A program made the translations under genes and the position numbers. Positions 2,831 through 29,689 of a stretch of DNA of 29,860 nucleotides are shown one piece after another (position 1 is the stretch's first letter; each line of letters begins with the position of its first letter). The DNA comes from an uncultured archaeon (GTDB lineage: Archaea > Iainarchaeota > Iainarchaeia > Iainarchaeales > DATDZZ01): contig CAYJVY010000013.1 of the NCBI GenBank assembly GCA_964373795.1, forward strand, positions 1-29,860, in the 5' to 3' direction. Below the pieces are notes generated by a model. It had not been told where the DNA came from and did not search any database. It worked only from the letters and a program-made list of their open reading frames with translations.

Positions 2831-2895
2831 ATTTTTTGGTAACGAATTTTGAAAATTAAACTAGATAGTCGAAAAGCTTTAAACCAAACATTTAA

Positions 2896-2915
2896 AATAA
2901 GTGACGTCACTTATT
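2896..2915. promoter_or_regulatory. Perfect 20-bp palindrome, putative operator of the RHH/MazF module
   Basis: AATAAGTGACGTCACTTATT is its own reverse complement. It overlaps a TATA-like TTTAAAATAA (2891..2900) and ends 30 nt upstream of the antitoxin ATG at 2945. Confidence 0.55.
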
Positions 2916-2944
2916 ATTTGTTATTTTGTAATGAAGGTTGTATA

Positions 2945-3172
2945 ATGACTAATATTACTTTGTCAATTGAGGATTCTGTATATAAAAAAATGCATGAGCA
3001 TTCAGAAATAAAGTGGAGTGAATTTGTTCGTAAAGCTATAAAAAAGAGATTAGGTGAATTGGATTCTCTGAAAAAAGGTAATGTTGAAAGCATATTCACA
3101 ATGCTCGCTTCTGAAGAAGTTCTTAAAAAAGAGTGGGATAATGAAGCTGATGAAAGGTGGAATAATGTATAA
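2945..3172 (+). CDS. Ribbon-helix-helix (CopG-like) antitoxin
   Basis: I prefer the ATG at 2945 over the track start at 2849. 'MTNITLSIEDSVYKKMHEHSEIKWSEFVRKAIKKRL' has the beta-strand/helix/helix pattern of RHH antitoxins. An acidic C-terminal 'SEEVLKKEWDNEADERW' follows. It overlaps the toxin start by 8 nt (ATGTATAA). Confidence 0.65.
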   Translation: MTNITLSIEDSVYKKMHEHSEIKWSEFVRKAIKKRLGELDSLKKGNVESIFTMLASEEVLKKEWDNEADERWNNV

Positions 3173-3485
3173 TCAAAGAGACATTGTAATTATACCTTTT
3201 CCTTATTCTGACCTAACTGATGCAAAGCAGAGGCCTGCGTTAATTATTTCAAATGATTTAATAAACAAAACAGATGACAGAATATGTTGTCTTATCACAA
3301 GCAATGAACCCTTGAATGGAATTGTTATAGATTCACTTGAGGAAGGAAAACTACCATTCAAAAGTTGGGTTAAACCATATAGAGTGTTTACAGTTCATGA
3401 AAAAATAATTAAAAAAAAGCTCTGCGCAATAACTAAAAATTTTCATAACAAAATAATAGAAAACATAAACCAATATATAAAGTAA
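3165..3485 (+). CDS. MazF/PemK-family toxin (endoribonuclease-like)
   Basis: I prefer the ATG at 3165 (track start 3081). 'MYNQRDIVIIPFPYSDLTDAKQRPALIISND' matches the conserved GDIV-x-V-x-FPF-x-D...K-x-RPALVLS N-terminus of PemK/MazF proteins. Confidence 0.8.
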   Translation: MYNQRDIVIIPFPYSDLTDAKQRPALIISNDLINKTDDRICCLITSNEPLNGIVIDSLEEGKLPFKSWVKPYRVFTVHEKIIKKKLCAITKNFHNKIIENINQYIK

Positions 3486-4034: not shown

Positions 4035-4367
4035 ATGTCTCGATTTAGACAAGTTGTGCAAAAGTTTAGAGGGCTTGGAGGTAAACCTTCTAAAGCTGAA
4101 AAGCATGTTGGTAAAGGAACTCCTAAAGGAGTTCATCAAGCTGTTTTCAGAGCAAATAGTGCTTTTGCAAAAGAAGTGTTAAGAGATGGTGGTTATTTGA
4201 GTAAGTCTGGTAGATTAACTAATAAGGGTTTAAAGCAGGCTAGAACTGTTCAAGAATTAATTGGAAGACTTTATTCAGGGCAATTAAGTATTCCTATTAA
4301 AGGTTCTTCTAAATTAATTGATTCTGTTCAAAAATTTATTGCTTCAATTAGTGGGGGTGTCTGGTAG
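4035..4367 (+). CDS. Small basic protein, paralog family P3
   Basis: 110-aa ORF. 'VLRDGGYLSKSGRLTNKGLKQARTVQELIGRLYSGQLSIP' aligns with P1 'LGFLKIEGSGLVLTKAGRLKVASIPDLLKRIRSGQIKTP'. Confidence 0.45.
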   Translation: MSRFRQVVQKFRGLGGKPSKAEKHVGKGTPKGVHQAVFRANSAFAKEVLRDGGYLSKSGRLTNKGLKQARTVQELIGRLYSGQLSIPIKGSSKLIDSVQKFIASISGGVW

Positions 4368-9800: not shown

Positions 9801-10196
9801 TTATCCAAAAGAATTTCCACATCCACAAGTTTTTTGTGCGTTTGGGTTTTTAATTGAAAACCCTGATCCTTGTAATGTTTCAACATAGTCTACTATTGTT
9901 TCTTGCATGAATTGCATGCTTCCTTCGTCTATGTAAATTTTTAATCCATTTTTTTCAAGTATTTTATCGTTTTCTAGTTCTTCGTTTTCAAAATTCATTT
10001 GATAACTGAATCCAGCGCATCCACCAGGAATTACTGAAATTCTTAATCCAAATCCTTCTTTGTTTTCTTGTTTAATGAATTCCTTTATTTTTTTAACTGC
10101 ATTTTCTGTTACAGTAATTAGTTCTCCTGTTTTAGTTTCTTCAATTACTGTTTTAGTGTTTCCTGAACTTTCACATCCTTCTCCACATCCACTCAT
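9801..10196 (-). CDS. iscA: IscA/HesB-family iron-sulfur cluster insertion protein
   Basis: 'ITVTENAVKKIKEFI', 'GGCAGFSYQMNF' and the C-terminal 'CGCGNSFG' are the three conserved Cys contexts of A-type carriers. It has an extra Cys-rich N-terminus (MSGCGEGCES). Confidence 0.85.
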   Translation of the reverse strand: MSGCGEGCESSGNTKTVIEETKTGELITVTENAVKKIKEFIKQENKEGFGLRISVIPGGCAGFSYQMNFENEELENDKILEKNGLKIYIDEGSMQFMQETIVDYVETLQGSGFSIKNPNAQKTCGCGNSFG

Positions 10197-13938: not shown

Positions 13939-14475
13939 ATGTTATCGGAAGGAGATCTTGCCCCGAATTTTTCTTTGAAAAATCAGAAAGGAGAAACAGT
14001 AACGCTTTCAGATTTTAAAGGAAAAAAAGTTGTATTATATTTTTATCCAAAAGATGACACTCCTGGATGTACTATTGAAGCCTGTCAGTTTAGAGATGCA
14101 AAATCTGATTTAAGTAAAAACGGAATAATTGTTTTAGGAGTGTCAAAGGATTCAATTGAATCGCATGAAAAATTTGTAAACAAATTTTCTTTGAATTTTT
14201 CCTTGCTTTCAGATCCAGATGGAAAGGTTTGCACTGCATACGATTCTTATGGAGAGAAAACAATTTTTGGAAGACTTGGACTAGGAATTTTGCGTAACAC
14301 TTTTTTAATTAACGAGAAAGGAAAACTTGTTAAAATTTTTAAAAGTGTTTCTCCGCAAGGACATGAAAAAGAGGTTTTACAAGCATTCGCCGAGCACGCG
14401 GTTGGCGTGAACAGTCAGCCGACGAGGCTGAGGCGAGCGGCGAGCGTGAAGCCGGCAGGGCTGAGAAAAAAATGA
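13939..14475 (+). CDS. bcp: Peroxiredoxin, Bcp type, with a 24-aa GC-element-encoded tail
   Basis: 'VVLYFYPKDDTPGCTIEACQFRD' contains the peroxidatic Cys motif. The homologous end of the family ('...LQAFAEHA') is followed by 'VGVNSQPTRLRRAASVKPAGLRKK'. Confidence 0.85.
   Translation: MLSEGDLAPNFSLKNQKGETVTLSDFKGKKVVLYFYPKDDTPGCTIEACQFRDAKSDLSKNGIIVLGVSKDSIESHEKFVNKFSLNFSLLSDPDGKVCTAYDSYGEKTIFGRLGLGILRNTFLINEKGKLVKIFKSVSPQGHEKEVLQAFAEHAVGVNSQPTRLRRAASVKPAGLRKK
14386..14465 (+). repeat. GC-rich junction element (copy A), about 70% G+C
   Basis: I count 56 G/C in 80 nt against an AT-rich background. Hairpins: CACGC-GGTTG-GCGTG (14395..14409) and TCAGCC-GACGA-GGCTGA (14415..14431). It shares the words GCGGCGAGCG, CGGCGA..GCGTGA and TCAGCCGRCGARGCTGA with copies B and C. 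Confidence 0.7.
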
Positions 14476-15490: not shown

Positions 15491-15796
15491 ATGGATGGAT
15501 TTTCGGTTAAAAAAGTTCCAGGCGGAAAACTAATTAAAATTCGCTTAAATTTTTCGGAAAAAATTGATTCAATTAAATTAATGGGGGACTTTTTTTTGCA
15601 TCCAGAAGATACTGTGCTTGAATTGGAAAAAACTTTAATTGGTTTGAATGCAAATGAATCACTTGAATTTTATTCAAGCAAGCTGGAAAATGTTTTACAT
15701 TTAAATAATGCTGAATTGTTTGGAATTTCTTCAAATGATTTAGCTGAAACTTTAATGGAGGCCATTAAAAATGGATTGGCGAGTAATAAAACTTGA
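15491..15796 (+). CDS. lplB: Lipoate-protein ligase accessory subunit (LplA C-terminal-domain homolog)
   Basis: 101 aa. 'KKVPGGKLIKIRLNFSEKIDSIKLMGDFFLHPED' resembles the stand-alone C-terminal domain of bipartite archaeal lipoate ligases. It lies directly upstream of, and overlaps, the catalytic subunit gene. Confidence 0.65.
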   Translation: MDGFSVKKVPGGKLIKIRLNFSEKIDSIKLMGDFFLHPEDTVLELEKTLIGLNANESLEFYSSKLENVLHLNNAELFGISSNDLAETLMEAIKNGLASNKT

Positions 15797-22730: not shown

Positions 22731-23687
22731 TTAATTTCCTGTTTTTGCTTTTTCTTTTAAATATTCTTGCAAGAATTGTGCTTGTCTTAAAAGTTTTTTT
22801 GCTCGAGTTTCTTGACCTGCTTTTACTGCTAAGTTTGCAGCTTCTTCTAATAATCCTATAGAATTTTCTGCTTGAAATTTTGCAAAAAACTTTGCTTCTG
22901 CTTCAGCTAGCACAGATGCCTTTATAAAATCATTTGCTTGAATTGCTTCAATTCTTTGATTTTCAAGCAATCCTAGATTTAATTTATTCATTTGAGAACG
23001 GAAAAACCTTTTCTCTCCTTCTTCTAAAACTATTGTTTTAGAATTAAGTGCTGCTTCAATTTTTTTTATTAAAGCACGAGCTTTTGCATATCTTTTGTTT
23101 TGCAATTCTTGTCTTGCAATGTGAACTAAATGCTTTGCTTGAATTGCTTCAAGAATTCCTTCTTGTTGTAAACTCAAATTAATTCTTGCACTTCTTAGTT
23201 TTTTTAATAATTGTTTTCCCTTAACAAAATTTCCTTTTAAATATTCCTCTTTAATTTGATCAAATAGCGGAGTAAACCCTAAGTATAGTGAGAGTTCTGT
23301 TTTTTTTCCTTTAAAAAATTGTTTCACTTCAGGTTTTGTGCTTTGAGCTTCAAATTCTTCTACAACTCTAAGCAATTGTTCTTTATTTAAGTATTTTCTT
23401 GCTTGACTCCAAAGCCTTTTTGCAGCTGTAATAGATTTTATTGCCGGAGTTCTAGGAAGTGGCTGAAATTCTTTTAAAGTTTTTCCTTTAAGTCCAAATA
23501 ACTGATCTCCTCTACTTATGAGAAGATCCCTTACTTGAGGATGTCTTGTTCGCGTAATAGCTTCTTCGACAAGGTTTTGTTGTTCTTTAACATTTTTTCC
23601 AGAAATTCTTTGCAAAAACCTTTTAGCGCCTTTTGTAGAACTAATTAATCTTTTTCTTTGAGGAGGTGCATGAATTAATGAATGCAT
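22731..23687 (-). CDS. Hypothetical helical-repeat protein with a basic N-terminus
   Basis: 318-aa ATG ORF. Internal repeats: 'EGILEAIQAKHLVHIARQEL', 'NQRIEAIQANDFIKASVLAE' and 'LLEEAANLAVKAGQETRAKKLL'. No motif recognised. Confidence 0.5.
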   Translation of the reverse strand: MHSLIHAPPQRKRLISSTKGAKRFLQRISGKNVKEQQNLVEEAITRTRHPQVRDLLISRGDQLFGLKGKTLKEFQPLPRTPAIKSITAAKRLWSQARKYLNKEQLLRVVEEFEAQSTKPEVKQFFKGKKTELSLYLGFTPLFDQIKEEYLKGNFVKGKQLLKKLRSARINLSLQQEGILEAIQAKHLVHIARQELQNKRYAKARALIKKIEAALNSKTIVLEEGEKRFFRSQMNKLNLGLLENQRIEAIQANDFIKASVLAEAEAKFFAKFQAENSIGLLEEAANLAVKAGQETRAKKLLRQAQFLQEYLKEKAKTGN

Positions 23688-23738: not shown

Positions 23739-25181
23739 TTAGTTTTTCTTTTTTGGCGCGAGGTGAATTGCTTTTCCTAGAGCTGCTTCTGCGGCTTCCA
23801 TTATTGCTTCACTCATTGTTGGATGAGGATGAATAGTTATTGCAATGTCTTCCAAAGAATTATAGGATTCCATTGCTAAAGCGCATTCTGAAATTAAATC
23901 TGAAGCATTTGGGCCAACAATCCATACTCCAATTATTTCATTTGAATCAGTGTTTACAATGAACTTTACAAATCCATCAATGCGATGCATTGTAAGCGCA
24001 CGCCCTAAAGCAGCAAAAGGAAATTTTCCTATTCTGTAATTAATTCCTTTTTCTTTTGCTTCTCTTTCACTTAAGCCAACTGAAGCAATTTCTGGATCAG
24101 AGTAAACCACTGCAGGAATAACGCGATTTTCAAAAGCACTTTTTTGTCCTGCAATTACTTCTGCTGCAATTTTTCCTTGAGCACTTGCACGGTGTGCAAG
24201 CATTGGCTCGCCTGTTACGTCTCCAATTGCATAAATATTTGAATCACTTGTTTGGCATTGAGAATTAATTATTATTTCTTTTTTATCGTTTAATTTTACT
24301 TTAGTGTTTTCTAGTCCAAGATTTTCAGTGAATGCTTCTCTTCCTAATGCAACTAAAACCTTTTCAACTTCTAATTCATTTTTTTTTCCATCCTTTGATT
24401 CAATTAATAGTTTTACTGAATCTCCTTTTTTTTCACTGCTTTTTACAATTGAATTTAAGTGAATTTTTACTCCAATTTTTTGCAGTTTTTCTTGAACAGT
24501 GTTTACTACATCTTCATCGTATTTAGTCATTAAATGTTCTGATCTATGGATAATATGTGTTTCACTTCCGGCTTTTCCGAAAACAGTTGCTAGTTCTACT
24601 GCAATATATCCTCCTCCAATTACTGCAACTTTTTTTGGAATAAAATCTAAATCTAATGCTTTTTCAGAGTCAATTATTTGTTTTTCATCAAATTTTGCTT
24701 CAAGTAATTCTTTTGATTTAGATCCAGTTGCAATTATTGCTTTCTTGAATTCAATTGCTTGAGCTTCAAGTCTTTCTCCTTCTGCCGGAATTATTCTAAC
24801 TCTGTCTGAGTTTTCAAATCTTGCAAAGGCTTTAATTACTTCAATCCCGTTTGCTTTGCATAAAAATTTTATTCCATTAGTTAGCTTGTCTATTATTCCT
24901 TTCTTCCATTCCTGTGTTTTCTTCATATCCAATGATTTTTTTTCAACGTTTACTCCGAAATCTTTTGCAGAACTTATTTCGTGAAAAAAATCCATTGCAT
25001 GAATTAATGCCTTGGATGGAATGCATCCATGATGCAAGCAAATTCCGCCCCATTCAGCTTTTGCATCAACTAAAATAACTTTTTTTCCTAATTGAGCTGC
25101 GCGAATTGCTGCAACATATCCTCCTGGACCGCCACCTATTACTAGTATTTCTGTTGAAAGACTTAATTCTCCCATTACCAT
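23739..25181 (-). CDS. lpdA: Dihydrolipoyl dehydrogenase (E3)
   Basis: 'VIGGGPGGYVAAIRAAQLG', the redox-active 'GGICLHHGCIPSKAL', a second dinucleotide fold 'VAVIGGGYIAVELA', and C-terminal 'HPHPTMSE'. Confidence 0.9.
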   Translation of the reverse strand: MVMGELSLSTEILVIGGGPGGYVAAIRAAQLGKKVILVDAKAEWGGICLHHGCIPSKALIHAMDFFHEISSAKDFGVNVEKKSLDMKKTQEWKKGIIDKLTNGIKFLCKANGIEVIKAFARFENSDRVRIIPAEGERLEAQAIEFKKAIIATGSKSKELLEAKFDEKQIIDSEKALDLDFIPKKVAVIGGGYIAVELATVFGKAGSETHIIHRSEHLMTKYDEDVVNTVQEKLQKIGVKIHLNSIVKSSEKKGDSVKLLIESKDGKKNELEVEKVLVALGREAFTENLGLENTKVKLNDKKEIIINSQCQTSDSNIYAIGDVTGEPMLAHRASAQGKIAAEVIAGQKSAFENRVIPAVVYSDPEIASVGLSEREAKEKGINYRIGKFPFAALGRALTMHRIDGFVKFIVNTDSNEIIGVWIVGPNASDLISECALAMESYNSLEDIAITIHPHPTMSEAIMEAAEAALGKAIHLAPKKKN

Positions 25182-25202
25182 TTTTTATTCAACTCTTTTT
25201 TT

Positions 25203-25310
25203 CTTTTCAGCTTCGCCTATTGCGATGTCTCGTGCGTCGAGCACGAGGGCCAACGTCGGCCTTCAGCTTCGCCGGCTGATCGCTTCAGCTTCGCCGGCTG
25301 AACGGCGTCA
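25203..25310 (-). repeat. GC-rich junction element (copy B) with a 22-nt tandem repeat
   Basis: About 64% G+C (66/103 by my count for 25208..25310). CTTCAGCTTCGCCGGCTGA occurs at 25261..25279 and 25283..25301 (period 22). A partial third copy, TTCAGCTTCGCC, is at 25206..25217. Hairpin CTCGTGC-GTCGA-GCACGAG is at 25229..25247. Confidence 0.75.
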
Positions 25311-26636
25311 TAAACCTAACAGAAGTAAATCAGGGTTTTCTAAAAACTTAATGATTTCTGTTACAAATCTAGCTGCTTCTGCTCCGTCCACTATTCTGTG
25401 ATCGAATGGCAGGCTTAAAACTGTAATAGTGCGAGTAGCAATTGAATTATCAGGCATTACTTTTACTACTTTTTTGAATGTTCCAATTCCTAGAATTGCT
25501 GCATCTGGTTTGTTAATGATTGGAATGGAAATTGTTCCTCCAAGGCTTCCAACATTTGTTATTGTAAATGTTTGTCCATGTAATTCTTGTAAAGAAATTT
25601 TTCTAGTACGAGCTTTTTCAGTTAATTCTTGTAATTCTTTTGCTAATTCTAAAATGCTTTTTTTATCTGCATTTTTTATTACTGTAACCATTAATCCTTC
25701 AACTGTATCTGTTGCAATTCCTAAATGATAAAATCCTTTTAACACGATTTCTTGTTTTTCTTCATCCAAGGATGAATTAAATTTTGGATATTTTTTTAAT
25801 GCTTGAATTACAGCTTTTATTATGAATGGCAAAAAAGTTAAATGAATTCCTTTTTTTGCAGCTTCTTCTTTTTCTCTAGTCCTTAATTCAACTAATCTTG
25901 TTACATCTGCTTCATCTATTTGCACTGCTTCAGGAATAGTGAACTTGCTTTTAATCATGTTTTCTGCAATTACTTTTCTAATTCCTTTAAATGGAATTCT
26001 TTGTTCTTGTCCTTCAGGAACACTGGATTGAATTGGTTGAAATGCTGGCATGCTTGGAGACTGTGAAAAAGTTTTTGATGAGCGATTAACTGCTTGGCGA
26101 ACGTCTTCATCAGTTATTCTTTCGTTTGGCCCTGTTCCTTGAATTAATTCTATTTGCACTCCTAACTCGCGAGCAAGTTTTCTTGTTGCAGGAGTTGCTT
26201 TCACTTCTTTTGCAGGCGCTCCCACAGTTGCTGGCATTGGTTGTGGAATTGGTTTTGAAATTGTTTCAACTTGTTTTGCTTCAAATGCTTTTTCAATTTT
26301 TTCAGTAATTTTTGGAGTTGGCTCTAAATCATGTTTTTTTGGACGCAGAATTTCAGTGTCTAAATCTTTTCCTGCAACAGTTTTTGGAAGGCTTTCTCCT
26401 TCTTCTCCAAAGGATACAATTACTTGTCCTAAATGAAGAGTGTCTTTTTCTTTTGCATGAAGTTTTAAAATAGTTCCTGCTTTTGGAGCAGGTAATTCTA
26501 CTACTGCTTTATCTGTTTCCACTTCAGCTAATGGTTGATCTTCTTTTACTTTATCTCCTTCTTTCACTAACCATTTAATTAGAATTCCTTCATGAATTCC
26601 TTCTCCTACATCCGGGAATTTGAATTCAAAAACCAT
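25308..26636 (-). CDS. pdhC: Dihydrolipoamide acyltransferase (E2) of a 2-oxoacid dehydrogenase complex
   Basis: Lipoyl domain 'LAEVETDKAVVELPAP', a subunit-binding domain 'ATPATRKLARELGV', and catalytic 'LPFDHRIVDGAEAARF'. Substrate (pyruvate versus branched-chain) cannot be decided from sequence by eye. Confidence 0.9.
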   Translation of the reverse strand: MVFEFKFPDVGEGIHEGILIKWLVKEGDKVKEDQPLAEVETDKAVVELPAPKAGTILKLHAKEKDTLHLGQVIVSFGEEGESLPKTVAGKDLDTEILRPKKHDLEPTPKITEKIEKAFEAKQVETISKPIPQPMPATVGAPAKEVKATPATRKLARELGVQIELIQGTGPNERITDEDVRQAVNRSSKTFSQSPSMPAFQPIQSSVPEGQEQRIPFKGIRKVIAENMIKSKFTIPEAVQIDEADVTRLVELRTREKEEAAKKGIHLTFLPFIIKAVIQALKKYPKFNSSLDEEKQEIVLKGFYHLGIATDTVEGLMVTVIKNADKKSILELAKELQELTEKARTRKISLQELHGQTFTITNVGSLGGTISIPIINKPDAAILGIGTFKKVVKVMPDNSIATRTITVLSLPFDHRIVDGAEAARFVTEIIKFLENPDLLLLGL

Positions 26637-26979
26637 TTTCTGCCTCTATTAGTTTTACAATTGTTTTTACAATTTTTTTATAAAAATCTTTTTTTACCTT
26701 TCCAATTTTTTTAATTGCAAATGATTTTTTAAGCAGATTAATTTTGTCGTATCTTATATATGTTTGAAATTTTAAAGAGCCCTTTTCCATATAGTTGGTT
26801 AATACTCTTAACTCATTAATTTTTTGTGATTTAGTTGTAAGAGCAACAAATAAGGCGTCTTGTGATTTTTGATTGTAATTGTTATTTGATAGTATTATTG
26901 TAGGACGTACTTTGTTTTTTATAAAATTTGTAAAAGGGTAATTTACTAAAACTATGTCTCTTTGATTTAAATCAATCAT
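26626..26979 (-). CDS. MazF/PemK-family toxin
   Basis: 'MIDLNQRDIVLVNYPFTNFIKNKVRPTIILSNN' is a PemK N-terminal signature. It starts 1 nt after the antitoxin stop, and its stop overlaps the first 11 nt of E2. Confidence 0.75.
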   Translation of the reverse strand: MIDLNQRDIVLVNYPFTNFIKNKVRPTIILSNNNYNQKSQDALFVALTTKSQKINELRVLTNYMEKGSLKFQTYIRYDKINLLKKSFAIKKIGKVKKDFYKKIVKTIVKLIEAENGF

Positions 26980-26980
26980 T

Positions 26981-27259
26981 TTATTCCTCTTCTAAATAAG
27001 AACTCCATACATTATCTTCTTCATTATCCCAAACATCTTTAAGCGACTCTTCTGCTAGTTTCAGCCAAAAAAAATCTTCATCGTCTTCTTCACTTAATTT
27101 TCTTAATACTGCTTCTTGTTTTTTTATTATTAGTTCTCCATTTTTTTCAATCAATACCAATGTTTCATTTTTCTTCAATTTTAAGTCTATTCTAAACTCT
27201 TCTGGAATAACTACTTGTCCTCGTTCACCAAGGGTAACAGTTTTAATCTTTGCAATCAT
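26981..27259 (-). CDS. AbrB/SpoVT-fold (MazE-like) antitoxin
   Basis: 'KTVTLGERGQVVIPEEFRIDLKLKKNETLVLIEKNGELIIKK' has the swapped-hairpin barrel pattern (G-x-x-GQV-x-IP). The acidic C-terminal tail is 'AEESLKDVWDNEEDNVWSSYLEEE'. Confidence 0.7.
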   Translation of the reverse strand: MIAKIKTVTLGERGQVVIPEEFRIDLKLKKNETLVLIEKNGELIIKKQEAVLRKLSEEDDEDFFWLKLAEESLKDVWDNEEDNVWSSYLEEE

Positions 27260-27448
27260 TCAAATCACACCAATATGAATAATATGATTTGCCATATTTA
27301 TTAACTTTTCTATTTTTTTATTCACTCTTTTCCAATATATTTCAAGTAATATTTATCTGTTACTTTTTAATAATTATAACTTCTTCTTGGTAAAATCTTT
27401 TAGTGCATTCAGCTTTTTTTCCTACTGAAGTTTCTCACTTAAAAAAAT

Positions 27449-28426
27449 TTATTGTTTTAATGTATCTTTTACTTCTTTTAAAATTCTTTTTTCGTCTGGC
27501 AAGTAATAATGCTCTAATTGCGCTAAAGGAATTATTGTATTGTATCCTGCAATTCTTTTCACTGGAGCTTTTAATTCGTATAATGCTTTTTCATTTATTT
27601 GTGCAGTGATTTCTGCTCCTATTCCTAGAAATTTTACTGCTTCATGAATTATTGCACATCTTCCTGTTTTTTTAACTGATTCAATTATTGTGTTTGAATC
27701 CATTGGAAAAACTGTTCTTAAATCAATTACTTCGCATGAAACTCCTTCTTCTTTTAATGAATCTGCTGCTGCAAGAGTTGGCCGCATAATTGCCCCTAAT
27801 GAAACTAAAGTAATATCTGTTCCTTCTCTTACAATGTTTGATTTTTCTAATGGAATAAAATATTCTTCTTCTGGAACTTCTTCTTTGAATGCTCTATACA
27901 TTTTAAGTGATTCAAAAAATATTACTGGATCTGGATCGTGAATTGCTGATGCAAGTAATCCTTTTGCTTCAATTGGGCTTGAAGGAATTACTACTTTTAA
28001 TCCTGGAACATGGGCAAAAAATGTTTCAGTTGATTCTTGGTGATGTTCTAATGCTCTAATTCCTCCTCCATAAGGAGTTCTTACAACTAAAGGGCAATGA
28101 AATCTTCCTCTAGATCTGTTCCTAATTCTTGCTGCATGGGATACTAGTTCTTCAAATCCTGAATAAACAAATCCACTGAATTGAATTTCTAGAACTGGTT
28201 TTAATCCGTGTACAGCCATTCCAATTCCTGTGCCAATTATTCCTTCCTCTGATAAAGGAGAATCAATTACTCTTTGTTTTCCGTATTTTGCTTGCAAGCC
28301 ATCTGTTACTCTGAATACTCCTCCATCTACTCCAATGTCTTCTCCCATTAAAATAATTGAATCATCTTTACTCATTTGTTGATCTAGACAATTATTTATT
28401 GCATTAACCATATGCATCTGCGGCAT
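27449..28426 (-). CDS. pdhB: 2-Oxoacid dehydrogenase E1 beta subunit
   Basis: 'MPQMHMVNAINNCLDQQM' parallels the 'MAQMTMVQAI' start of Gram-positive PdhB. The ORF shows full-length transketolase-like pyrimidine-binding and C-terminal domains (325 aa). Confidence 0.9.
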   Translation of the reverse strand: MPQMHMVNAINNCLDQQMSKDDSIILMGEDIGVDGGVFRVTDGLQAKYGKQRVIDSPLSEEGIIGTGIGMAVHGLKPVLEIQFSGFVYSGFEELVSHAARIRNRSRGRFHCPLVVRTPYGGGIRALEHHQESTETFFAHVPGLKVVIPSSPIEAKGLLASAIHDPDPVIFFESLKMYRAFKEEVPEEEYFIPLEKSNIVREGTDITLVSLGAIMRPTLAAADSLKEEGVSCEVIDLRTVFPMDSNTIIESVKKTGRCAIIHEAVKFLGIGAEITAQINEKALYELKAPVKRIAGYNTIIPLAQLEHYYLPDEKRILKEVKDTLKQ

Positions 28427-28430
28427 TAAA

Positions 28431-28477
28431 GGTCACGCTCCTTCGCCGTCACGTGCGGCGAGCGCGAAAAGTGCGAC
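28431..28477. repeat. GC-rich junction element (copy C)
   Basis: About 68% G+C (32/47). Palindrome TCGCCG-TCACGTG-CGGCGA is at 28443..28461. GCGGCGAGCG (28455..28464) is identical to 14437..14446. On the mRNA strand, the 3' arm of the hairpin is followed directly by the GGAG upstream of the E1beta ATG. Confidence 0.7.
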
Positions 28478-28478
28478 A

Positions 28479-29561
28479 TTACATTTCCCCTCTTTCTTGC
28501 ATTAATTTTTCAAAATATTCTTTGTCTTCTTTCAAGTGTTTAGGCATTTTTTCATAAATGAAGTCAAACATTTCACTTGGCTTTGGTTTTGGAACTGCCT
28601 CAAATTTTTTTACTGCTTCTTCTACTTTTGCAATGCATTCTTCAGCTATTTTTTCTGATTCTTGAGTTGACTGCATTCCAGTTTGATGCATGAATTTTTT
28701 TAATCTATCAATCGGGTCTTTTGCAATCCATGAATCTACTTCTTCTTTTGACCTGTATTTTTTCCAGTCATCAGCTGTTGTATGATCGCTTATTCTATAA
28801 GTTAAGCATTCAATTAAGCTTGGGCCTTTTCCTTGTCTTGCTCTATCCACTGCTTCTTTTGTTGCAGCATATACTGCAAATAAATCGTTTCCGTCTACTT
28901 GAATTCCTGGAAAACCATATGCAATTGCTTTTTGAGCAATTGTTTGAGCATGTGTTTGAATGCTTCTAGGAGTTGAAATAGCGTATTGATTGTTTTGACA
29001 AATATATACTATTGGAGCCTGCCATACTCCTCCAAAATTCATTGCAATTTGAGTTGCACCAGTTGAACTAGTTCCATCTCCAAAATAAGTCATTGCAACC
29101 CTGTTTTCCTTTCTATACTTTATTGCATAAGCATATCCTGTTGCATGTAAAGCCTGTGTTCCTAAAGGCACTGCTACAGTGAAATTATTCACTCCTTCTG
29201 CTGCTTGAGCTCTTTCATCTCCACTCCAAGCTTGAAAAATTCCGTCTAAAGGAGTTCCCCTCATAATCCAAACAGAATGCTCTCTGTAAGTTGGAAAAAT
29301 AAAATCATTTGCTTCTAATGCTCCACAAGTTCCAACAATTGAAGCCTCTTGTCCTCTTGGACTTCCATAAGTTCCTAGACGCCCAGTTCTTTGCAATTTT
29401 AAAGCCTTTTCATCAAATGCGCGAGTTAAAACCATCCAATAATAGAATTCTTTTACTTGCTTGCTTGAAAGCTTTGGCATTAATGTGTCTTCAACTTTTC
29501 CATTTTCATCCATTACTTGCAAGTATTCTACTTTGAATTCTGCAACAGTTTTTCTAACCAT
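28479..29561 (-). CDS. pdhA: 2-Oxoacid dehydrogenase E1 alpha subunit (TPP-binding)
   Basis: 'YFGDGTSSTGATQIAMNFGGVWQAPIVYICQNNQYAIS' is the GDG-x(24-27)-NN thiamine-diphosphate motif. The 360-aa size and position upstream of E1beta fit. Confidence 0.9.
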   Translation of the reverse strand: MVRKTVAEFKVEYLQVMDENGKVEDTLMPKLSSKQVKEFYYWMVLTRAFDEKALKLQRTGRLGTYGSPRGQEASIVGTCGALEANDFIFPTYREHSVWIMRGTPLDGIFQAWSGDERAQAAEGVNNFTVAVPLGTQALHATGYAYAIKYRKENRVAMTYFGDGTSSTGATQIAMNFGGVWQAPIVYICQNNQYAISTPRSIQTHAQTIAQKAIAYGFPGIQVDGNDLFAVYAATKEAVDRARQGKGPSLIECLTYRISDHTTADDWKKYRSKEEVDSWIAKDPIDRLKKFMHQTGMQSTQESEKIAEECIAKVEEAVKKFEAVPKPKPSEMFDFIYEKMPKHLKEDKEYFEKLMQERGEM

Positions 29562-29605
29562 TTAAAACCACTCCAGCGGTTTTAAAGTTTTAAAAAATTT
29601 AAATG

Positions 29606-29689
29606 TGAAATTCATTTAAAATTTCTCCAGGAATTTTAAAATTTGCAAATTTTTAGATTTGAAATTCATTTAAGTTTCCTCCGGAATTT
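29606..29689. repeat. Two ~31-nt direct repeats in the promoter region of the dehydrogenase operon
   Basis: TGAAATTCATTTAAAATTTCTCCAGGAATTT (29606..29636) and TGAAATTCATTTAAGTTTCCTCCGGAATTT (29660..29689), period 54 nt. The second overlaps the palindrome CCGGA-ATT-TCCGG (29681..29693). Confidence 0.6.

Follow-up and report, generated by a model that had tools for sequence, protein, structure and literature searches.

Introduction

Repetitive extragenic palindromic sequences (REPs) are known to change messenger RNA (mRNA) stability and the expression ratios of genes within an operon, and REP-like palindromes are also reported in archaea (PMC12306157, PMC3733652). The REP palindrome bears an unpaired GTAG or CGTC tetranucleotide at one end (PMC3733652), and predicted REP counts rise with genomic G+C content (PMC12306157); the host considered here is an archaeon of the DPANN type with 31% G+C. 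Rickettsia palindromic elements (RPEs) insert in frame into protein genes and are translated as an extra peptide (PMC10969869, PMC3733652), and the GC clusters of yeast mitochondria evolve by the merger and shuffling of palindromic units (PMC4478555). The present work concerns three GC-rich islands, A, B and C, in a 29,860-nt stretch of DNA from an uncultured archaeon of the Iainarchaeota (GenBank assembly GCA_964373795.1, contig CAYJVY010000013.1, positions 1 to 29,860 of the forward strand), which was analysed whole and is referred to below as the window. Island A lies at the junction of bcp, encoding a peroxiredoxin of the Q/BCP type, with a thiI-like gene, and islands B and C lie in an operon encoding a 2-oxoacid dehydrogenase.

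On balance, and with modest confidence, the three islands are read here as members of a family of mosaic repeats, GC-rich and able to form hairpins, that is specific to this lineage, has spread into transcribed junctions, and resembles REPs and their bacterial interspersed mosaic elements (BIMEs), RPEs and GC clusters. The C-terminal tail that island A adds to Bcp is best read as the by-product of an in-frame, stop-free insertion.

Three GC-rich islands at the junctions of co-operonic genes

The window has a G+C content of 30.9%, and measured over 80 nt its mean is 0.309 with a standard deviation (SD) of 0.064. Values of 0.55 or more are confined to three places, near 14.4, 25.2 and 28.4 kb, and the peak of 0.70, reached in island A, stands about 6 SD above the mean of the window. 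A first-pass annotation, made from the sequence alone, had assigned about 70% G+C to 14386-14465, and a recount returns 56 of 80 nucleotides; the remaining spacers of the window have 10-34% G+C. Each island occupies a junction between co-directional, co-operonic genes, all three are in sense orientation (3/3), and the words common to A, B and C run in the same sense when each island is read along the direction of transcription. Coordinates of the islands, their modules and the genes around them are collected in Table 1.

Table 1. Positions of the islands, their modules and the adjoining genes in the window.
Feature	Position	Strand	Remarks
bcp (peroxiredoxin Q/BCP), 178 aa	13939..14475	+	Pfam AhpC-TSA 1.7e-40, residues 5-132; native part to ~14389
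Island A	14386-14468		bcp/thiI junction; peak 0.70 G+C
Element A, GC-rich (~70%) mosaic insert	14388..14466	+	no stop in bcp frame; same in three independent assemblies
A hairpin 1, CACGC-GGTTG-GCGTG	14395..14409	+	-8.1 kcal/mol
A module a, TCAGCCGACGAGGCTGAGG	14415..14433	+	6-bp stem, 5-nt loop
A degenerate second module a	14433..14451	+	aligns with second tandem unit of B; includes GCGGCGAGCG
A hairpin 3, AGCC-GGCAG-GGCT then GAGA	14450..14466	+	followed by seven A and the ATGA overlap
thiI-like PP-loop gene, 204 aa	14472..15086	+	Pfam ThiI (PF02568) 2.7e-50; start overlaps bcp stop
2-oxoacid dehydrogenase operon	23739..29561	-	E1alpha, E1beta, mazE, mazF, E2, E3 by Pfam
E3	23739-25181	-	Pfam
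Element B, 61% G+C	25200..25307	-	E2-E3 spacer; from directly after E2 TGA to ~20-30 nt before E3 ATG
B third module a, 5'-truncated, GGCGAAGCTGAAAAG	25203..25217	-	from sequence
B module-b hairpin, CTCGTGC-TCGAC-GCACGAG (7 bp)	25229-25247	-	from sequence
B hairpin GGCCGACGTTGGCC	25248-25261	-	from sequence
B tandem module a, two units, TCAGCCGGCGAAGCTGAAG	25283-25301 and 25261-25279	-	sense strand there
E2	25308-26636	-	Pfam
mazE/mazF	26981-27259, 26626-26979	-	Pfam
E1beta	27449-28426	-	Pfam
Element C, 62% G+C	28427..28478	-	fills whole 52-nt E1alpha-E1beta spacer; two independent assemblies identical
E1alpha	28479-29561	-	Pfam
Search core, module a			TCAGCCGRCGARGCTGARG
Search core, module b			TCGYGCTCGMCGCACGWGAC

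Relatedness of the islands

The islands had been proposed to be related on the strength of shared words, and each of these is borne out: TCAGCCGACGAGGCTGAGG of element A and the twice-repeated TCAGCCGGCGAAGCTGAAG of element B agree at 16 of 19 positions; GCGGCGAGCG occurs both at 14437-14446 and at 28455-28464, in either case on the + strand, the second copy being antisense to its operon; and CGGCGA-AGGA-GCGTGA is found on the sense strand of 28433-28448. Shuffles of the whole window give an expectation of 0 matches for the shared words, but this null is too lenient because any two GC-rich stretches have words in common. Under a stricter null, in which each island was shuffled alone with its dinucleotides preserved and local alignment scores were compared, A and B score 34 against 17.9 +/- 2.9 (p<0.002), B and C 25 against a mean of 16.6 (p=0.008), and A and C 24 against a mean of 16.3 (p=0.014). 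The summed score of 83 exceeds the null maximum of 72 (p<0.002); in this comparison with shuffled controls, a check set beforehand, the scores remain significant. As judged from these alignments, the three islands are alike beyond composition.

The likeness is modular. Positions 14414-14454 of A align over 46 columns with the two tandem module-a units of B, module b of B agrees with the C segment 28448-28467 at 16 of 20 positions, and the segment 14388-14401, which overlaps hairpin 1 of A, is similar at 12 of 14 positions to module b of B when that hairpin is reverse-complemented. Modules a and b thus occur in differing combinations across the islands, in a mosaic pattern.

Both GC hairpins that had been predicted in element A (14395..14409 and 14415..14431) are present, the latter with a TCAGCC/GGCTGA stem of -10.2 kcal/mol, and across the islands the stems have 4-7 bp (13 bp in C), with loops of 5-7 nt and energies of -5 to -18 kcal/mol. 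The shared segments, however, do not share a fold. Substitutions between copies break the stem of the partner, and the same segments pair differently in each copy: a segment that forms the module-b hairpin in B is paired in A as the CACGC/GCGTG hairpin and in C within another, longer inverted repeat, CGCGCTCGCCG...CGGCGA(AGGA)GCGTG (28434-28466; -17.8 kcal/mol). The likeness is therefore one of sequence descent and not of a conserved fold, and derivation from one ancestral repeat accounts for the differing folds better than would an RNA structure under conservation.

The C-terminal tail of Bcp

Element A encodes the last 24-28 residues of Bcp; the AhpC/TSA match in Pfam ends near residue 145. 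The tail is missing from all of the 120 best Bcp homologues (8000 scored), nearly all of which are 150-160 residues long and whose coverage of the query ends at 82-88% of its length, mostly at 83-85%. As had been proposed by comparison with other Bcp proteins, homology ends near ...AFAEHA, the aligned homologues terminating at about 150-158 aa, 0-3 residues past the equivalent of ...AFAE; the few longer homologues carry extensions, N- or C-terminal, that are unrelated to the tail. The closest homologue, at 72% identity, comes from a Candidatus Diapherotrites metagenome-assembled genome (MAG), and the DNA similarity of its gene to bcp extends through GCATTCGC, to about 14389, past which that gene ends in AAAACTCTAA and the window runs on as CGAGCACGCGG... 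When the 30 C-terminal residues were compared with 1.84 billion representative proteins, the sole match was to an unrelated repetitive protein (E=5e-5).

The codons of the tail are likewise rare among the genes of the window, where GCC and GCG make up 4% and 2% of Ala codons, CCG 4% of Pro, ACG 2% of Thr, CTG 4% of Leu, CGA 5% of Arg and GAG 11% of Glu. From homology and codon usage together, the tail is not native Bcp sequence, and the idea that it is a conserved coding extension of Bcp orthologues is largely refuted (0/120).

The open reading frame (ORF) of bcp does stop only in the ATGA overlap, as the first-pass annotation had it, with the TGA at 14473-14475 overlapping the thiI ATG at 14472. 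Where that annotation speaks of a replaced bcp stop codon, an in-frame insertion into the final codons of bcp describes the event more closely, and the bcp frame continues to end at the ATGA. The thiI frame, too, is free of stops in element A, as is to be expected of GC-rich DNA, and no start codon is present in the thiI frame 5' of 14472.

Downstream of hairpin 3 of A there follow a run of seven A residues and the stop/start overlap. Upstream of the thiI start only GCTGAG is found, as against the GTGA(T) that lies 6-9 nt upstream of the start in many genes of the window, and translation of thiI therefore probably depends on coupling through the ATGA overlap. The Shine-Dalgarno-like GTGA(T) or GGTGA is seen, for example, 6-9 nt 5' of the starts of the genes at 9801-10196, 4035-4367, 15491-15796, 22731-23687 and 26981-27259. 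The thiI-like product consists of the PP-loop ATPase domain alone, PF02568 covering residues 2-188 of 204, so that neither a THUMP nor a rhodanese domain could be accommodated.

The same junctions in relatives

The nearest available relative for the dehydrogenase operon, a 3-kb Logan contig with 72% identity in E3, has an E2-E3 spacer of 109 nt with 5-15% G+C, which retains the flanks CCTGATTT and GAGTTGAAT-(N)-ATGGTAATGGGAGAATTAAGT and holds nothing GC-rich in between; the lone GC peak on that contig is a transfer RNA (tRNA). The GAGTTGAAT downstream of element B is left intact in the window. In more distant DPANN relatives E1alpha/E1beta and E2/E3 overlap or lie 4-23 nt apart, or the junction is longer and poor in G+C; in one of these relatives a spacer of about 55 nt is A- and G-rich. 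A scan of Joint Genome Institute (JGI) metagenomes with E1beta returned distant relatives only, of 44-55% G+C and lacking the elements. As the junctions of relatives are free of the elements, the elements are gains of this lineage. Downstream of the closest bcp gene lies a gene in convergent orientation, which leaves no orthologous bcp-thiI junction for comparison.

Logan contigs of two sequencing runs break at or around B, one of them ending 42 nt into it (25196-25328; L124, L125, L127). The contigs of run ERR3478686 end 21 nt short of the E2 stop codon and restart exactly at GAGTTGAAT; this break was considered as evidence of an element-free allele and dropped, since the same run is broken at an unrelated AT-rich spacer (L129) and the other runs are of low coverage.

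Neighbouring features of the window

Several further features of the operon and its surroundings were noted. The mazE/mazF toxin-antitoxin pair (26626-27259, - strand) lies between E1beta and E2, the end of mazF overlapping the E2 start by 11 nt, and in two more distant DPANN relatives (L121, L122) E1beta adjoins E2 with no maz pair; a second PemK/MazF-like gene of the window, with a ribbon-helix-helix (RHH) partner, is at 2849-3485. Directly 5' of the E1alpha start codon there is a 54-nt tandem direct repeat (29559-29666), its two copies 76% identical, possibly a promoter or leader that has been duplicated. In the public annotation E1beta (P0241, 320 aa) begins five codons past the first ATG, but the alignment with homologues extends to that ATG (325 aa); the apparent length of spacer C depends on which start is chosen.

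Past the right end of the window (L127, 1-5630) a large partial ORF is succeeded by three paralogous genes resembling the T4 gp19 tail tube, and these in turn by genes for lipoyl synthase, a serine hydrolase and a Fic protein. These genes, beside lipoate and dehydrogenase genes, may be the remnant of a contractile-injection system or prophage.

Proposed origin and consequences

Under the favoured reading, copy A would have inserted just upstream of the ATGA overlap, which is itself probably ancestral. Because GC-rich DNA seldom holds stop codons, the ribosome would read through the copy, adding a basic, probably disordered tail of 24-28 residues to Bcp before it terminates at the former ATGA. 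Translation of thiI would in this way stay coupled to that of bcp by termination and reinitiation, and the hairpins of copy A would be unfolded by the passing ribosome. Copies B and C, which are untranslated, would place stable hairpins in the polycistronic mRNA; over the 130 nt around the three downstream starts the minimum free energies are -46, -31 and -29 kcal/mol, against a window median of -17. In the manner of intercistronic REPs, such hairpins could alter how stable the mRNA is or how strongly upstream genes are expressed relative to downstream ones, as a side effect and not as a demonstrated function.

A number of observations weigh against a propagating repeat family. The stretch of the host genome covered in looking for copies amounts to about 35 kb, namely the 29.9-kb window and 5.6 kb beyond it (L127), and this further 5.6 kb holds no additional island; the related loci in 29.9 kb are only three, in two operons, where a high copy number is the core property of a repeat family. 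In 185,579 species-representative genomes, among which the host genome is not included, the 19-nt core of module a (TCAGCCGRCGARGCTGARG) has 111 matches, none of them in a GC island of an AT-rich genome; their surroundings are GC-rich or ordinary coding sequence, and their flanks are unrelated. No transposase, including the REP-associated tyrosine transposase (RAYT; IS200/IS605-type Y1), is found among the 30 window proteins scanned with Pfam.

Terminal inverted repeats are absent from A and C, and B has only an inverted match of about 6 nt (TTCAGC), its two ends bearing GGCGAAGCTGAA in the same sense, that is, as direct and not inverted repeats. No target-site duplication is visible at edges set by homology to relatives. 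GTAG/CTAC is absent from A, B and C, and GACG is found in all three within loops or stems and not at the ends. Within the species itself no empty-site allele has been seen. Sense orientation in all three cases and restriction to operon junctions would be equally expected of a selected RNA element.

A cluster of three GCCGGCGAGGCTGA words within about 100 nt, inside CGCCTCAAACGCCGGCGAGGCTGA palindromic repeats, was noted at a contig end of Streptomyces sp. NPDC002138 (L077, 7740-7850). As a relative of module a it was set aside, being taken as a local actinobacterial repeat and probably a coincidence.

The earlier inference of short GC-rich elements at gene junctions, put forward as either REP- or MITE-like insertions (MITE, miniature inverted-repeat transposable element) or structured RNA modules, thus stands as to the three related islands at co-directional junctions. 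It falls as to the MITE hallmarks, which are absent, and a conserved RNA structure is unsupported, the shared segments folding differently.

Alternative explanations

The alternative that survives best, although it is held to be unlikely, is that the islands are not selfish repeats but selected cis-acting intercistronic RNA modules, which would lend stability to the upstream segment, flag sites of processing, or couple or tune downstream translation. An example, unlikely to the same degree, would be a copy C that keeps the Shine-Dalgarno-like sequence of E1beta sequestered pending the translation of E1alpha. The placement of all three islands in sense, inside operons and between a stop and the next start speaks for such modules. 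Compared with shuffled sequences, A (z=-2.6) and B (z=-2.8) have lower folding energies, but C does no better than its shuffles (z=-0.7).

At the starts themselves, GGAGCGTGA, the Shine-Dalgarno-like sequence of E1beta, is held by the 3' arm of the C inverted repeat, within the -17.8 kcal/mol stem, with an unpaired probability of 0.26 against the window median of 0.48. A and B end in A-rich tracts, and these leave the start codon open. The effect on ribosome-binding sites is nonetheless inconsistent: the E3 start is very open (0.79/0.81), that of thiI is average (0.36/0.63) and only that of E1beta is low, so that no consistent sequestration is found across the three. The shared modules, moreover, pair differently from copy to copy, three copies being too few for covariation. 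The same junctions in relatives are without any such element, and Rfam gives no match, nothing reaching the gathering score and E<=5 returning only noise of 13-15 bits.

Less probable again is the fuller version of this view, by which the islands would represent a hitherto undescribed class of intercistronic RNA modules of DPANN archaea, rich in G+C and in sense orientation, which sets subunit stoichiometry or transcript stability within operons, translation of the Bcp tail being selected as a means of preserving thiI coupling across a blocking structure.

It is improbable that the islands are captured scraps of foreign GC-rich DNA, whether from, for example, a bacterial donor of bcp and of the dehydrogenase operon or through repair-mediated patch insertion, and not a propagating family. 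Bcp and the dehydrogenase subunits do have many bacterial homologues at 50-60% identity, and the core 19-mer occurs in many GC-rich bacterial genomes, but the matches to this 19-mer in other genomes are unrelated coding sequence with unrelated flanks. The coding regions that flank the islands are fully AT-rich (33-37% G+C), and a recent transfer is therefore unlikely; unselected spacers should drift towards AT faster than genes. The three islands also have modules in common with one another. BLAST against phages gave no match, viral contigs yielded one chance match to module a and none to module b, and plasmid matches, inside GC-rich Rhizobium and Streptomyces genes, were rejected as being at chance level.

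Still more improbable are small noncoding RNA genes nested in the operons, such as C/D-box or other guide and regulatory RNAs, or a riboswitch preceding thiI and the thiamine-dependent E1. GC islands of AT-rich archaea often mark structural RNAs (cf. PMC3124441), which counts in favour of this view, as do the GUGAA..CUGA words and a CUGAGA word recalling the thiamine pyrophosphate (TPP) riboswitch. Archaeal C/D boxes are not supported, however: RUGAUGA/UGAUGA is absent, the GUGAAC/GUGAAG...CUGA spacings are 14 and 8 nt instead of about 12, and Rfam C/D families score at most 14 bits. For the TPP riboswitch (THI element), cmscan at E<=5 is without a match, and the CUGAGA word upstream of thiI stands alone. 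Inspection by eye for C/D boxes, k-turns and the TPP riboswitch disclosed nothing, a tRNA search found none, and relatives show no conservation.

The remaining proposals for A, namely a functional Bcp extension (a few homologues from GC-rich organisms have basic Ala/Lys/Pro tails; P0119), an assembly or sequencing artefact, and an intron spliced at a bulge-helix-bulge (BHB) motif, in which a 4-bp helix lies between two 3-nt bulges with a helix on either side (A and B are each bracketed by one BHB-like arrangement), are very unlikely and largely refuted, in that the tail has no homologue and a codon usage foreign to the window, that the bcp-thiI junction is base-for-base identical in the Logan assemblies of ERR4904390, ERR4904391 and ERR4904392, which excludes a chimera (the artefact raised at the outset) or a frameshift error, and that the BHB candidates are weak and at chance level (one in each region, where shuffles of region A give 0.29), have helices mostly of G-U and A-U pairs (in B, 3/4 central pairs wobble) and would, on excision, delete the downstream start codon.

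Significance

Should a genome-wide census confirm the family, it would be, as far as has been found, the first description of a repeat family resembling REPs or GC clusters from a DPANN archaeon, where selfish DNA is not expected to be common in the small, streamlined genomes. It would also offer a clean example of a GC-rich insert that removes stop codons and creates protein tails in an AT-rich genome. This has a practical bearing on the annotation of MAGs, in that an unusual C-terminal extension or a GC spike where two genes meet is not necessarily an error of assembly.

The novelty is modest: literature searches found no such element described in DPANN, and the earlier statement that no element of this kind had been described holds only in this narrow sense, REP-like palindromes and MITEs having been reported in archaea and close analogues elsewhere (PMC12306157, PMC10969869, PMC4478555). 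No long-standing question is opened: for the mechanism, and for what follows from it, REPs, RPEs and the GC clusters of mitochondria offer good precedents.

Comparison with known systems

Prokaryotic MITEs, including those of Sulfolobus and haloarchaea, are small, non-coding, structured insertions near genes that may give in-frame fusions (PMC10969869), and in this respect they resemble the present elements. The elements differ in having neither terminal inverted repeats nor a target-site duplication, the termini of B being direct repeats, and are therefore not MITEs in the strict sense.

Closer in several respects are the RPEs, to which the elements are likened by description, as palindromic repeats in an AT-rich reduced genome of which one, element A, lies in frame and adds 24-28 residues to a protein. 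Sequence homology to RPEs is not to be expected, the host being an archaeon. The RPEs are about 100-150 bp long, reside mostly within ORFs and end in CGTC (PMC3733652), whereas the present elements lack this end, are intergenic in two of three copies, and in the translated copy form a C-terminal tail.

From REPs the elements are set apart by the missing GTAG/CGTC end tag, GACG/CGTC lying within loops, and they are therefore not tagged REPs in the sense of PMC3733652. Their stems have only 4-7 bp, one copy is translated, and no RAYT-type transposase is seen in the window. REPs have many copies, dispersed over the genome and sharing a consensus; here three related loci are known in 29.9 kb and none in a further 5.6 kb. 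What they have in common with REPs and BIMEs is the combination of short, GC-rich, imperfect palindromes into mosaics; the location in transcribed spacers of operons or just past stop codons, B and C being intercistronic and A at the extreme 3' end of bcp; and specificity to a strain or lineage.

The GC clusters of yeast mitochondria, such as GC42, belong to a eukaryotic organelle, fall into defined classes with an AG target dinucleotide, and number tens to hundreds of copies as against the three known here. They are mobile or variable between strains; here the E2-E3 element is absent from one relative, of 72% E3 identity. Like the present islands, of 61-70% G+C in a 31% background, they are GC-rich hairpin islands of 30-100 nt in a very AT-rich genome, mostly intergenic and in transcribed regions, and the mosaic make-up of the islands, with modules a and b in different combinations, matches the merger and shuffling by which GC clusters evolve.

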